Made by a program: the position numbers and the translations under genes. The notes under the pieces were generated by a model, which was given only the letters and a program-made list of their open reading frames with translations, did no database searches and was not told where the DNA came from. Shown piece by piece: positions 6,071 through 12,628 of a stretch of 24,000 nt of DNA. This DNA is from Candidatus Bathyarchaeia archaeon (GTDB taxonomy: Archaea; Asgardarchaeota; Heimdallarchaeia; JABLTI01), in the NCBI GenBank assembly GCA_035528035.1, contig DATKZI010000051.1:26365-50364 (forward strand), written 5' to 3'. Within the stretch, counting starts at the first letter, position 1, and every line of letters starts with the position of its first letter.

Positions 6071-6679
6071 TTAAACCAAAATTAGCGTGAAGGAGGTTAG
6101 ATAAACAAATACTCCACTATAGCTAAATTTAGATAATTGACTATTCCACTCCCATAATTCGAATATTATTTTGTAACCGGAAGAGCTTAATCCTAATTTA
6201 CTAATTATCTCTGAATTGAAATTAAAAGCAAATTTTGTTTCAGATGAAGGGCCCCATTGTTCCTCTATATCTATGATTTTTTGTATCCAATGTTCATAAT
6301 AAAAATAGGTCGATTCATTGGTACCAAAGGTATCTTCATCAATTATTAGATTATAAAGTCCTATCTTCAAACGTATTTCATAAAACATCGCTTTTTGATA
6401 GTGATTACTTAACATAATATATAATGTAATAGGATCAGAACTATTTGATGTTTGATTATAAGCTACACTTATTGGATAATTTTCTGCTTTATATTTATTA
6501 TTTACATCATCATAAGTCAGTAATCCCAATTCAGAATATTGCTCTCCACTTATTGGTGGAGTAAAAATTAAAATTGTTGAAATAACAATACCAATAAGAG
6601 TTAAAGCTAAAACCATTCTAACAACTAATTCAAAATCAAATTTTTGATTTTTTGATTGTTTGTCTTTTTTGTTATTCAT
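6071..6679 (-). CDS. Membrane-anchored extracellular protein resembling the C-terminal domain of archaeal DUF1616 proteins
   Basis: One N-terminal TM helix, then YSELGLLTYDD...AENYPISV...LYIMLSNHYQKAMFYEIRLKIG. From memory this matches the DUF1616 block 'FTEFYLL...YPT...VGI.NHE....Y.L.V'. Confidence 0.5.
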   Translation of the reverse strand: MNNKKDKQSKNQKFDFELVVRMVLALTLIGIVISTILIFTPPISGEQYSELGLLTYDDVNNKYKAENYPISVAYNQTSNSSDPITLYIMLSNHYQKAMFYEIRLKIGLYNLIIDEDTFGTNESTYFYYEHWIQKIIDIEEQWGPSSETKFAFNFNSEIISKLGLSSSGYKIIFELWEWNSQLSKFSYSGVFVYLTSFTLILV

Positions 6680-6702: not shown

Positions 6703-7203
6703 TTATATTTCAGGTTTACTTTCCTCTTCAGGATATATTATTTCTAAATCTAAGAATTCTTCCTCACTTCGTATTTTATGCCATTTTATCATTTTCATTC
6801 CCAAAAAGGCAATTAGAGCAACAACAATAAGCAAGTTAAATGGTATAATTATATATGTGAGTATTCTATTTCGCCTATAATTCGTTAAATCGTTATTTAC
6901 ATCTTCAATGATCAATATTGCTTTATTATAGGCATTAGTATAATCTTCTGAGAAATAATCATCCAAAGCATCATTTAACCGATCTACATAGCTCGTAACA
7001 TCTAAACCTTCTTGACTAGCATGCTCAATCGTTTCATATGCTGTTATTATTTTTGAATAAGTATCCTCTTCAGATACAGCATTTACTATTAAAATATCAT
7101 TTTGCGTTTTTAGAATTAAACTTGAAGTAATAATTAGAAACACTATAGAAAAGAACATCAATCTCTTTATTGGATTAGAACATTTATTTCCAGTAGTTTT
7201 CAT
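6703..7203 (-). CDS. Hypothetical secreted/membrane-anchored protein (N-terminal signal/TM, helical ectodomain, C-terminal TM, acidic tail)
   Basis: 166 aa ORF whose ATG overlaps the stop of the upstream gene (ATGA overlap at 7200-7203), implying operonic co-translation. No recognisable family. Confidence 0.5.
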   Translation of the reverse strand: MKTTGNKCSNPIKRLMFFSIVFLIITSSLILKTQNDILIVNAVSEEDTYSKIITAYETIEHASQEGLDVTSYVDRLNDALDDYFSEDYTNAYNKAILIIEDVNNDLTNYRRNRILTYIIIPFNLLIVVALIAFLGMKMIKWHKIRSEEEFLDLEIIYPEEESKPEI

Positions 7204-7901
7204 TCTTCTATCACTTCTTTTATTTTATTATTTTTAGTTCTAATAGAACCATCTTTACCAAGTTTCATTCTTAAACCAATTGAAATTAATAAGTCAATTA
7301 TTATTATTACTATTAAACTTGTAACAATTGATCGAGGGCTAAATTTAAAGGTATAATTTAGAAATATCGCATCAATCATCAAGATAAAAAGACTTAAACC
7401 AATTGCAGTAGCAACTCTTTCCAAGTATGTTAATTTTTCATCCAACTCAGGGAAAATAACTGAAGTTAAAGACCAACCTGAAATAATCAACATAAAAAAA
7501 CAAACTACTATATATCTTATATAAAACAGAAATCCTACTCTTACATCTATTAGAACCATAGTTAAAGCTAAACATATTGTTGCAACAATGATCCAAAATT
7601 CATAAGCATAGTAATTTTTAGCAAAAATGAATGCTAGTAATCTTTTTGGTGGTACTGTAGGACTTACATATGGTTCTTTCAATATAATTTCATTATTATA
7701 TTCTAATTCCTTTATTGCTGAAATAATTTTTTCTTTTGAAAATTTACTTTCTGATACTAAACTAGTTACAAGAGTTCTTATATCTCGAGGTTTTTGATTT
7801 TTTAAAATCTTTTTAATTTCATCTTTTATAATTAAATTTTCTTGATCAAGATCATTTTTCTCTTTAAATCTTTGTTTTTTCTTTTCTTCTTTAAGAGCCA
7901 T
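7200..7901 (-). CDS. Membrane protein resembling the N-terminal membrane half of DUF1616, with an extra charged N-terminal (possibly winged-helix-like) domain
   Basis: 233 aa. About 80 soluble N-terminal residues are followed by 4 TM helices containing SGWSLTSVIFPE...LERVATAIGLSLFILMIDAIFLNYT. From memory this matches the DUF1616 block 'PGYAL..ALFP....ER.ALSFGLS......G..LN.T'. Confidence 0.5.
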   Translation of the reverse strand: MALKEEKKKQRFKEKNDLDQENLIIKDEIKKILKNQKPRDIRTLVTSLVSESKFSKEKIISAIKELEYNNEIILKEPYVSPTVPPKRLLAFIFAKNYYAYEFWIIVATICLALTMVLIDVRVGFLFYIRYIVVCFFMLIISGWSLTSVIFPELDEKLTYLERVATAIGLSLFILMIDAIFLNYTFKFSPRSIVTSLIVIIIIDLLISIGLRMKLGKDGSIRTKNNKIKEVIEE

Positions 7902-10138: not shown

Positions 10139-12064
10139 ATGAAATCAATAGAAAATATCTGTGAGAAATTTGCTTTTCAAAATGCTCTTGATTATGGAAA
10201 AGCACAAGTAGGACCCATTATGAGAATCATTATGAGTGTTTATCCTGATTTACGTAATGATGCTTCAAAAGTAAAAGAAATACTCGAGAAAAAAGTAGAG
10301 TATGTTAATTCCATACAAAAAGCAGAAATTGAGCAAATTATACAGCAAAAATTCCCTGAATTATTGAAAAAAGAAGAGGTAAAAAGTGATTCAGAGGATG
10401 TTGATTTCATAAGAACGATGATCAATGAGGATAATAGAACCAAACGATTTGGTGGTCGAGTTCACACACGTTTCCCTCCAGAACCAAATGGTTATTTACA
10501 TATCGGTCATGCAAAATCAATCAATTTAAATTATGGCATTGCAGAAGAATATAGTGGGAAATTTAATCTAAGATTTGATGATACCAATCCGATAACAGAG
10601 GAAGCTGAATATGTCAAAGGAATCATTGAAGATGTAAAATGGATTGGTGGAAATTTCGAGGATCGCTTATTATTTGCATCCAATTATTTTGATCAATTTT
10701 ACAACTATGCTGTTCAATTGGTTAAAAAAGGACTAGCTTATGTTGATGACTTGACGGTAGAAGAAATTCGCGATTATAGAGGAACATTAACTGAACCTGG
10801 TAAAGAAAGTCCCTTTAGAAATAGAACAATCGAAGAAAATCTCGATTTATTTGAAAGAATGAAAGCAGGAGAATTTCCAAATGGTTCAAAGGTTTTACGA
10901 GCAAAAATCGATATGAATCATCCTAATTTGTTAATGCGCGATCCAATAATGTATCGTATTCTCCATGAAAATCACCATAATACTGGTGATAAATGGTGTA
11001 TTTATCCAATGTATGATTTTGCTCATGGCTTAGAGGATTCTATCGAAAGAGTAACTCACTCAATTTGTACAATGGAATTTGAAGTCCATAGAGAGTTATA
11101 TGATTGGTATCTAGATAACCTTGAGGAGGAAGATGGAAAGCCTATTTTCCATTCACAGCAAATTGAGTTTGCTCGTTTAAATGTTTCATATACCGTTTTG
11201 AGTAAGCGAAAAGTTTTACGATTGGTAAATGAGCGATACATAAATGGTTGGGATGATCCCCGATTGTTGACCATCGTTGGTCTAAAGCGTAGAGGAGTAA
11301 CATCAGATGCTGTTCGAGAATTTTGTAAGAGTATTGGTGTAACTAAAAGAGAGACAGTCATAGATATATCAGTTTTAAATAAGTTTATTCGAGATGATTT
11401 AGATAAACGATGCACTCGAGTTATGACCATTTTACGACCACTAAAAGTTATTTTGACCAATTATCCCGACGATAAAATAGGGGAATTTATTGTACCTAAT
11501 CATCCAAAAGATGAAACTATGGGTAAAAGGAAAGTGAAATTCTCGAAAACATTATACATAGAACAAGAGGATTTCATGGAGAATCCATTAGATGACTTTC
11601 GTCGACTTTCTCCGGGAAAAGAAGTTCGCTTAAAATATTCCTATTTTATCAAATGCGATAAAGTTGTTAAAGATAAGAAAACTGGTGAAATAAAAGAACT
11701 TCAATGTAGCTATGATCCTGCTACTAAAGGTGGTACTGCTCCCGATGGACGAGATGTACAAGGAACTATTCATTGGTTATCTGCCACCAATGCAGTTCAT
11801 GCTGAAATACGCTTATATGACCAACTTTTTACTAAAGAAAATCCTCTTGATGCTGAAGAAGGAAAAGACTACACAGATTACATTAATCCCAATTCCCTTG
11901 AGATACTTCAAGGCTTTGTAGAACCACATCTACAGAAATCAAAAATTGGTGATAGATACCAATTCGAAAGAAATGGTTATTTCAATATTGATTATGATTC
12001 TAAAAAAGATGCTTTAGTCTTTAACAGGATTATTCCTTTACGTGATTCATGGTCCAAGAAATAA
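10139..12064 (+). CDS. glnS: Glutamine--tRNA ligase (glutaminyl-tRNA synthetase, class I) with an N-terminal GatB/YqeY-like extension of about 85 aa
   Basis: 641 aa. HIGH motif (YLHIGHAKS) and KMSKS motif (VLSKRK) are present. Long blocks are colinear with E. coli GlnS as I recall it: [73 protein letters not shown]. Confidence 0.95.
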
Positions 12065-12292: not shown

Positions 12293-12521
12293 TTAAATTA
12301 CACTAGAATTTACTAAAAAAATAGCTTTTTCAAATAGTAAATAAAGGTTATTTTAGAAACAAAAAAGTAAAAGAGGGATTTCTTATCAAATAAAGTAGGA
12401 AAAAAAGCATTAGCTCTTTTTTAGTTTCAAAAGAAATATTTAAAACCAAAAAAAGAATGTTTGACAAGTAGAAAATCTACAATAGACCTGTAGTCTAGCG
12501 GCCAAGGATTGGGGACTTTGA

Positions 12522-12553
12522 AAAAAGTCTCGAGGCACTCGGGATTCTCAAGA
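12522..12553 (+). other. tRNA intron 1 (32 nt) at the canonical 37/38 position
   Basis: It interrupts the anticodon loop after CTTTGA. Anticodon plus A37 (TTGA) can pair with TCAA (12548-12551) just before the 3' junction. The intron interior forms a 7-bp hairpin, TCTCGAG-GCA-CTCGGGA. The boundaries are ambiguous by 1-2 nt because of A runs. Confidence 0.75.
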
Positions 12554-12573
12554 ATCCCTCGACCGGAGTTCAA

Positions 12574-12604
12574 TCACAAGTTGATGCGTTCAGCTTTGGA
12601 ATAT
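12574..12604 (+). other. tRNA intron 2 (31 nt) at a non-canonical T-loop position (about 58/59)
   Basis: The T stem CGGAG...CTCCG is separated by 38 nt instead of 7. Removing 31 nt restores TTCAAAT. The intron contains the hairpin AGTTGA-TGCGT-TCAGCT. The exact junction is uncertain by 1 nt. Confidence 0.7.
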
Positions 12605-12628
12605 ATCTCCGCAGGTCTACCAATTCTA

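Follow-up and report, generated by a model that had tools for sequence, protein, structure and literature searches.

A bacterial-type glutaminyl-tRNA synthetase with an archaeal GluRS-type N-terminal domain, encoded next to tRNAGln in a Heimdall-group archaeon

Introduction

Do archaea possess a glutaminyl-tRNA synthetase (GlnRS), and if they do, where does it come from and how does it deal with an archaeal tRNAGln? Reviews from 2020 to 2022 state that archaea lack this enzyme and ascribe its absence to the divergent ('orthogonal') identity set of archaeal tRNAGln, A73 and A1:U72 (PMC7373986, PMC9499178, PMC8762117). The question is raised by the gene glnS (Table 1), located on a stretch of 24,000 nucleotides of archaeal DNA (GenBank assembly GCA_035528035.1, contig DATKZI010000051.1, positions 26,365 to 50,364 of the forward strand), which as a whole is referred to as the window. 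This locus contradicts the textbook generalization that archaea lack GlnRS. Its product has the profile matches and active-site residues of a GlnRS and combines an N-terminal domain of the archaeal glutamyl-tRNA synthetase (GluRS) type with a GlnRS body of the bacterial type. From these comparisons we consider it likely that the enzyme is functional and charges its own tRNAGln with glutamine, that its body stems from an old transfer from bacteria to the Heimdall group of Asgard archaea, and that the GluRS-type domain is carried on a flexible linker.

The existence of the gene is already recorded in databases and implicit in published tables, and the enzyme family is well known. In the searchable literature, outside of which most subscription journals lie, Asgard GlnRS was found only in a single sentence of a 2024 preprint, which in passing lists GlnRS among the neighbors of cox genes in Hodarchaeales and Kariarchaeaceae; the bacterial affinity, the chimeric architecture, the linkage to tRNAGln genes and the tRNA changes were not found described there. 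The major Asgard phylogenomic papers contain no discussion of Asgard GlnRS.

The glnS Gene Encodes a Glutaminyl-tRNA Synthetase

A first-pass annotation of the window, made from the sequence alone, had proposed that the open reading frame encodes a GlnRS and not a GluRS, and profile searches bore this out. The glnS product scored 696.2 bits against TIGR00440, the NCBIfam equivalog model for glnS (cut-off 425.8), and covered model positions 1-524 of 524, whereas it remained below the cut-offs of the models for archaeal gltX (TIGR00463, 375 bits, cut-off 402) and for GluRS (NF003169, 356 bits, cut-off 516). The catalytic domain tRNA-synt_1c (PF00749) was detected with E = 1e-100 (Pfam), together with both anticodon-binding domains. 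The coordinates originally given for the reading frame were exact, and the motifs claimed for it are all found in its translation: HIGH, KMSKS and the quoted sequence blocks, which consist of 43 residues plus FERNGYF. An identical protein is deposited as HUT82298.1 (NCBI). In the homology search, the nearest clusters, about 60 in number and 61-86% identical over the full length, carry the labels Heimdallarchaeota, Heimdallarchaeaceae or Asgard group.

For a comparison of residues, the window GlnRS and its relatives (59 Heimdall sequences) were aligned with 135 bacterial GlnRS, 3 eukaryotic GlnRS and 13 GluRS. Both histidines and the lysine of the HIGH and KMSKS motifs are kept in all 59 Heimdall sequences. 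The residues that form the glutamine pocket of the E. coli enzyme (R30, Y211, S227, C229 and Q255) correspond to R111, Y292, S308, C310 and Q341 and are likewise invariant in 59 of 59. At the position of C229, Heimdall GlnRS has cysteine and the outgroup GluRS have arginine (13 of 13). The equivalent of K270 is kept in the catalytic domain of the window GlnRS, as are the anticodon-binding equivalents of R341, R402, R410, Q517 and R520. The unpairing loop, with L217 in place of E. coli Leu136, and the G36-recognition loop, with R489 in place of Arg402, both have the length found in E. coli, and L217 and R489 are conserved in 59 of 59; these loops are missing from archaeal GluRS, both in our alignment and according to published work (PMC2978374). 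Judged by its profile matches and residues, the window protein is a bona fide GlnRS.

One substitution concerns the contact with the acceptor stem. Residue 316 occupies the position of E. coli Asp235, which we take to read the G3:C70 pair in the E. coli GlnRS-tRNA complex, and is valine in 50 of the 59 Heimdall enzymes. The change from aspartate to valine fits a tRNA without a fixed G3:C70 pair. In addition, the catalytic domain carries a Heimdall-specific acidic insertion of six residues (EEDGKP, residues 329-334, positions 11123-11140). The indel near residue 330 was considered as a character for polarizing the tree and rejected, since it is Heimdall-specific and hence uninformative.

The Enzyme Is of the Bacterial Type

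Two explanations for an archaeal GlnRS had been put forward in the first-pass annotation: a lineage close to the eukaryotic stem, or a horizontal acquisition that rewired glutamine decoding. When the window GlnRS was compared with proteins of known structure, the highest scores were those to the bacterial enzymes of Pseudomonas aeruginosa (5BNZ, 662 bits) and E. coli (1GTR/1QTQ, 645 bits), followed by the GlnRS 5ZDK (576 bits) and the Deinococcus enzyme (2HZ7, 467 bits); human GlnRS (4YE6) reached 426 bits, yeast GlnRS (4H3S) 379 bits and archaeal GluRS 199 bits. The likeness to bacterial GlnRS covers the whole body from residue ~84 onward and includes the domain order, the HIGH and KMSKS motifs, the glutamine pocket, the unpairing and G36 loops and the N-terminal helix of the bacterial protein (NFIRQIIDED in E. 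coli), which is matched by a segment of ten residues in the window GlnRS. Identity in the catalytic domain ranges from ~52% to 76% across the sampled bacteria and is ~56% to E. coli. The Heimdall enzymes differ from the bacterial ones by an extra N-terminal domain of ~80 residues, by the six-residue insertion and by the valine at the Asp235 position.

A tree was calculated by neighbor joining from 210 sequences and 365 columns of the catalytic domain, with 200 bootstraps. Sampled were 59 Heimdall GlnRS, the 57 nearest bacterial proteins, E. coli GlnRS, 77 GlnRS from named genomes across many bacterial phyla, one GlnRS from a second Asgard group (L060, see below), the catalytic domains of human, yeast and a second fungal GlnRS as recovered from PDB alignments, and 13 GluRS as outgroup. 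Heimdall sequences were monophyletic in 99.5% and eukaryotic sequences in 94.5% of the bootstraps. The split between Heimdall plus bacteria on one side and eukaryotes plus GluRS on the other was present in 100%, a group of Heimdall and eukaryotes in 0%. Mean identity of Heimdall GlnRS is 0.64 to bacteria, 0.46 to eukaryotes and 0.35 to GluRS, and bacterial GlnRS are at 0.49 to the eukaryotic ones. Eukaryotic GlnRS resembles the window protein in activity class, in the glutamine-specific residues and in having an appended N-terminal domain; it differs in its lower scores, in a catalytic-domain identity of only ~46% and in forming a separate clade, and its N-terminal domains PF04557 and PF04558 gave no Pfam match in the window GlnRS.

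Since the highest scores are bacterial, the grouping with bacteria is found in every bootstrap and no additional closeness to eukaryotes is seen, acquisition from bacteria is the supported one of the two explanations, and the enzyme is, by these comparisons, a bacterial-type and not a eukaryote-like or 'stem' GlnRS. What stood of the stem proposal is its statement about the host, which is indeed a Heimdall-group Asgard archaeon (see below). Such a host would suit vertical inheritance of a eukaryote-type GlnRS from the archaeal stem of eukaryotes, but with the bootstraps divided 0% to 100%, the weaker scores against human and yeast and the missing eukaryotic domains we regard this origin as highly improbable.

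The N-Terminal Domain Is Homologous to That of Archaeal GluRS

Heimdall GlnRS are ~85 residues longer at the N-terminus than bacterial GlnRS. Nothing sets the protein apart more than this extension, which had been missed in the first-pass annotation. Over residues 3-81, the alignment with the non-discriminating GluRS of Methanothermobacter thermautotrophicus (3AII, residues 3-82) runs position for position (E = 1e-6, phmmer against the PDB). An exhaustive HMMER search with residues 1-108 against 1.8 billion representatives returned 45 matches, and all that covered the domain in full length were archaeal GluRS, aligned from their own residue 1 with 31-42% identity. The homologous GluRS segment is the structurally disordered 'YQEY domain' of the 3AII crystal (Nureki et al., 2010; PMC2978374). 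In the AlphaFold2 model of the window protein, the domain is a helical bundle of five helices, the last of them short (predicted local distance difference test, pLDDT, 82.7), and is followed by a linker of low confidence. Besides these ~80 residues, the protein shares with archaeal non-discriminating GluRS the fold family and, as we predict, archaeal tRNAGln as substrate. The rest differs: the body is ~35% identical, remains under the TIGR00463 cut-off, has cysteine where GluRS has arginine and possesses the unpairing and G36 loops. The alignments thus describe the protein as a chimera of an archaeal-GluRS-type N-terminal domain and a bacterial-type GlnRS body.

All 62 Heimdall proteins checked for the domain contain it, as do two additional Heimdall genomes, and it is missing from all bacterial GlnRS sampled. 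Heimdall copies annotated with a length of 559-577 residues were considered as proteins lacking the domain; this was rejected and the short versions ascribed to gene calling, since in the single copy looked at (L089) the domain is present in the DNA upstream. At that locus (L089:2253-2480), in a Heimdallarchaeota MAG (metagenome-assembled genome), one in-frame TAA stands in place of the Glu codon (GAA) of relatives and separates the N-terminal region from the GlnRS body; a sequencing error, recoding or a gene in two parts could explain it. A high-scoring protein of 832 residues (P0006, ENA) was examined as a possible longer variant and rejected as well: in this bacterial GlnRS, ~270 internal residues are repeated in tandem, most likely through faulty assembly.

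Small helical domains are also appended to bacterial-type GlnRS in the GlnRS/YqeY fusion of the Deinococcus type (2HZ7; NF011291). There, YqeY is C-terminal, whereas the Heimdall addition stems from archaeal GluRS and sits at the N-terminus, with nothing appended behind the GlnRS body; against 2HZ7 the window GlnRS scores only 467 bits. Against NF011291 the window GlnRS reached 816 bits over model positions 10-558 of 769, with the C-terminal YqeY part (~559-769) unmatched. The NCBI product name 'GlnRS/YqeY domain fusion protein' is therefore right for the wrong reason, coming from a model whose YqeY part is unmatched. C-terminal additions were also seen by eye in bacterial GlnRS, namely a GatB/YqeY-like tail in a Gemmatimonadales protein of 772 residues (L059) and a Trbp111/EMAP-like tRNA-binding domain in a Myxococcota protein of 716 residues (L076).

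The best GluRS matches to the N-terminal domain are cluster representatives labelled Thermoprotei, Thaumarchaeota and Korarchaeota. We claim no donor from these labels, since with 80 residues and 50% clustering they say nothing reliable about it.

The Distribution of GlnRS Favors an Old Transfer From Bacteria

GlnRS is spread across many bacterial phyla; among archaea, only one Asgard class has it, apart from a separate sporadic case. In the neighbor-joining tree, bacteria were monophyletic without Heimdall in 0.5% of the bootstraps. In quartets with a eukaryotic outgroup, Heimdall fell between the two members of 31-47% of the bacterial pairs, which a basal position would not lead one to expect. 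The quartets together with the wide bacterial and narrow archaeal distribution favor one old transfer from bacteria to the Heimdall group. The transfer would be old because glnS is compositionally ordinary, lies in conserved synteny and has diversified to a minimum identity of ~61% within the clade. Closest in the tree are Ignavibacteriota, Bacteroidota, Planctomycetota and Chloroflexi-type sequences, with supports of at most 0.39. A GlnRS/GluRS tree, proposed as a maximum-likelihood check in the first-pass annotation and calculated here by neighbor joining, places the enzyme firmly in a bacterial-type clade and only poorly among the bacteria.

Several points weigh against a transfer from bacteria followed by capture of the N-terminal domain. 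The branching order within the bacterial-type clade is one of them, as the supports on the path to Heimdall do not exceed the value just given. When 544 full-length columns were used with the distant GluRS outgroup only, Heimdall was basal to all bacteria in 12.7% of the bootstraps. The trees are all distance-based, so that the direction of the transfer is something we infer. The similarity of the N-terminal domain to GluRS about equals that of the body (up to 43%), and with equal divergence late capture and ancient retention are not distinguished. Finally, Pfam, Foldseek against the PDB and hhalign revealed no kinship of the N-terminal domain with YqeY/GatB tails; hhalign against the C-terminal YqeY domain of L059 gave a probability of 1%.

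Some of these points are what one would see if the architecture were ancestral, that is, if GlnRS had arisen by duplication of an Asgard or Heimdall GluRS with its N-terminal domain kept, and bacterial GlnRS by transfer and loss of this domain. The equal divergence of domain and body, the low backbone supports and the basal position in part of the bootstraps agree with such an origin, as does the classical view, which derives bacterial GlnRS from the archaeal/eukaryotic side (PMC7373986). We nevertheless consider it unlikely. With the closer eukaryotic outgroup the bacteria hardly ever form a group of their own; Heimdall GlnRS is no nearer than bacterial GlnRS to eukaryotes (0.46 vs. 0.49) or to GluRS (0.353 vs. 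0.357); many bacterial phyla have the enzyme as opposed to a single Asgard class and one sporadic case; the junction lies exactly at the bacterial N-terminus; and long-branch attraction would push Heimdall to a basal position artefactually. It is also quite unlikely that the direct charging of tRNA with glutamine originated among Asgard archaea, with archaea rather than eukaryotes as the source of GlnRS and bacteria trimming the domain. The preferred reading remains that of a bacterial enzyme acquired by the Heimdall group, and for arguments about eukaryogenesis it holds a caution: the eukaryotic enzyme does not descend from the Asgard GlnRS, which is of the bacterial type.

A tRNAGln Gene With Two Introns Is Located Downstream of glnS

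A gene for tRNAGln(UUG) begins ~420 nt downstream of glnS and forms the only intergenic GC island in the window. In the raw window, no tRNA was reported by ARAGORN or Rfam, neither at gathering thresholds nor at E ≤ 10; this is a false negative, because two introns interrupt the gene. Once the introns were spliced out by hand, ARAGORN recognized the remaining 76 nt as tRNA-Gln(ttg). Multi-intron tRNAGln genes of this kind escape standard tRNA finders. Exon boundaries were set with orthologues that contain no intron (L002), one intron (L004) or the same two introns (L086), and in the acceptor and T stems of the orthologous genes base changes compensate each other. For the T-loop intron, a boundary after TTCAATC was rejected, since the orthologue alignment places it after TTCAA. 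A fold calculated under constraints pairs the anticodon region with the intron and has A-rich bulges on both flanks; a strict 3-nt/4-bp/3-nt bulge-helix-bulge could not be drawn for either intron. Across the related loci the gene has zero, one or two introns, and an intron in the D-loop was seen in L088, where ARAGORN mis-called the gene as tRNA-Ile.

The spliced tRNA has A1-U72, A73 and C12:G23, the set that a 2022 review describes as typical of archaeal tRNAGln (PMC9499178). A tRNA with a T-loop intron and a tRNAGln with A1-U72 and A73 had both been predicted by the first-pass annotation; both features are confirmed, the intron by its orthologues, and an anticodon-loop intron is added to them.

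The Linkage of glnS and tRNAGln Is Conserved

The tRNAGln(UUG) gene lies directly downstream of glnS not only in the window but also in eight related loci (L002, L003, L004, L005, L006, L086, L087 and L088), and in four of these (L002, L003, L005 and L087) the CUG isoacceptor is found within 0.1-2.4 kb. Altogether, linkage between glnS and tRNAGln was present in 10 of 10 Asgard loci examined. The position of glnS upstream of tRNAGln suggests co-inheritance or co-expression of the enzyme and its substrate.

All 13 Heimdall tRNAGln compared contain A1-U72 and G2-C71, and their 3:70 pair varies between A-U, U-A, C-G and G-C. The discriminator is A73 in 11 of them and G73 in both tRNAs of one lineage (L003:12020-12123 and L003:13978-14049). 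Bacterial tRNAGln, in contrast, has U1-A72 and G73. The G73 of the L003 lineage may reflect co-adaptation of the tRNA to the bacterial-type enzyme.

A GlnRS was also observed in a MAG labelled Promethearchaeota, of the Loki group (L060:2977-4677). It is without the N-terminal domain and is likewise flanked by both tRNAGln genes (L060:4698-4885), which have an archaeal appearance with A1-U72 and the bacterial discriminator G73. Its identity is 0.69 to bacterial GlnRS and 0.59 to the Heimdall clade; being nearer to bacteria than to Heimdall, it is probably the result of a second, independent transfer.

How a Bacterial Enzyme Might Accept an Archaeal tRNAGln

We propose that the ancestor of the Heimdall-group Asgard archaea gained a bacterial GlnRS by horizontal transfer and that this enzyme would glutaminylate archaeal tRNAGln directly. 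The archaeal non-discriminating GluRS normally binds archaeal tRNAGln and does so without unpairing and G36 loops (PMC2978374). The grafted N-terminal domain could act as an auxiliary tRNA-binding module that helps the bacterial enzyme to accept a tRNAGln with A1-U72, A73 and C12:G23. Appended domains add affinity or specificity for tRNA in the Deinococcus enzyme (YqeY) and in eukaryotic GlnRS. The valine at the Asp235 position would suit a tRNA with a 3:70 pair other than G-C that varies among relatives.

Supplementary tables of published studies bear on the fate of the indirect route, in which GluRS acts together with the amidotransferase GatDE. One table lists ~2.2-2.6 copies of COG0008 (K01885/K01886/K09698) in the ancestors of Heimdall and Hodarchaeales, compared with ~1.1 copies in most other Asgard lineages, and ~3 copies of the COG0252 family, which includes gatD, in the same Heimdall and Hodarchaeales ancestors (Eme et al., 2023). 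A Gerdarchaeote genome with duplicated PF00749/PF03950 markers contains duplicated GatD and GatE (Wu et al., 2022). These tables hint that the direct and the GatDE routes coexist in the Heimdall group, and the direct route would probably operate alongside the GatDE route rather than replace it. The idea that glutamine decoding was rewired thus holds as far as a direct route is added, while the tables suggest that GatD and GatE persist in Heimdall-group genomes. For annotation, the second PF00749 gene can pass as a duplicated marker in checks of genome completeness.

The persistence of GatD and GatE where two genes of the GluRS/GlnRS family exist could also mean that the protein is a GlnRS-like paralogue with a changed job, such as service to one isoacceptor, regulation or another substrate, and that Gln-tRNA is still made by GluRS and GatDE; the archaeal tRNAGln, with A73 and no G3:C70, indeed lacks some of the bacterial identity elements. 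We find such a change of function distinctly improbable, given that the catalytic, glutamine-binding and anticodon-reading residues are all invariant in the 59 sequences and that glnS is tightly linked to both tRNAGln isoacceptors. Moreover, in some lineages the discriminator has become the bacterial G73, as expected if the enzyme uses these tRNAs.

If the direct route operates as proposed, a whole Asgard clade has crossed the orthogonality barrier of archaeal tRNAGln. The suggested way across it is that a bacterial enzyme received the domain on the tRNA side of the resident GluRS and stayed beside the tRNA genes. The locus then offers a natural experiment in the re-matching of a synthetase and its tRNA after transfer between domains of life, and a testable candidate for an engineered orthogonal pair.

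Table 1. Coordinates of glnS, its protein domains, the adjacent tRNAGln gene and two context genes in the window.
Feature	Position	Strand	Remarks
glnS	10139..12064	+	ATG start, stop codon included; 641-residue GlnRS
N-terminal helical domain (residues 1-81)	10139..10381	+	homologue of the 'YQEY' domain at the N-terminus of archaeal non-discriminating GluRS
Probable flexible linker (residues 79-89)	10373..10405	+	pLDDT <50 in the AlphaFold2 model
Bacterial-type GlnRS body (residues 84-641)	10388..12061	+	alignment to E. coli GlnRS residues 4-551 and P. aeruginosa 5BNZ
Class I catalytic domain (residues 108-422)	10460..11404	+	PF00749
HIGH motif (residues 121-124)	10499-10510	+	
KMSKS-type motif VLSKR (residues 353-357)	11195-11209	+	
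Two beta-barrel anticodon-binding domains	11411..11992	+	PF03950, residues 425-526; PF20974, residues 543-618; includes G36-recognition loop
tRNAGln(UUG), two introns, encoded CCA	12484..12622	+	ARAGORN match after splicing; orthologue alignment
tRNAGln exon 1	12484-12522	+	orthologue alignment
tRNAGln intron 1 (anticodon loop)	12523-12554	+	orthologue alignment
tRNAGln exon 2	12555-12573	+	orthologue alignment
tRNAGln intron 2 (T-loop, after TTCAA)	12574-12604	+	orthologue alignment
tRNAGln exon 3	12605-12622	+	orthologue alignment
DUF1616-family membrane protein	7200..7901	-	PF07760, 33.7 bits, cut-off 31.6; context marker only
DUF1616-like protein	6071..6679	-	PF07760, 29.9 bits, below cut-off 31.6; context only

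The Gene Is Resident in a Heimdall-Group Genome

A GlnRS with 86% identity is encoded in a MAG labelled Heimdallarchaeota (L086), and its downstream neighbors, which encode a YegS-type kinase and two ABC transporters, are also those of glnS in the window. Near glnS, the contigs of more distant relatives carry genes for actin, Arf/Ras GTPases, RIO1, NucS and an archaeal prepilin peptidase, and synteny is kept between two assemblies. The host is a Heimdall-group Asgard archaeon, and the NCBI label 'Candidatus Bathyarchaeia archaeon' is probably wrong, as the GlnRS phylogeny and the synteny with L086 both point to the Heimdall group. The identical GlnRS protein is found on several independent assemblies. 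The window is AT-rich, as had been described, with a GC content of ~0.28 throughout and no break at glnS.

A mis-binned bacterial gene, or a chimeric join into an archaeal contig, could account for a protein ~64% identical to bacterial GlnRS and for a Bathyarchaeia label at odds with the relatives. The same arrangement, however, recurs on independent assemblies, glnS is syntenic with Asgard hallmark genes across several MAGs, an archaeal GluRS-type domain is fused to it in frame, an intron-bearing archaeal tRNA follows 420 nt downstream, and the GC content shows no discontinuity. Because of the independent assemblies, the synteny, the Asgard hallmark neighbors and the even GC content, we dismiss contamination or a chimeric join, which the first-pass annotation had wished to see excluded, as hardly conceivable.

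The two DUF1616-like neighbors named in the same annotation were recovered, one over the Pfam threshold and one slightly under it (Table 1). In two Heimdall MAGs, an actin-family gene precedes glnS by ~3-4 kb, with synteny conserved (L002:5661-6800 and L003:5490-6605). Directly upstream of glnS, the 762 bp between 9377 and 10138 gave no family match and no RNA match and contain only short open reading frames of at most 64 residues, one of which is called as a gene in L001.

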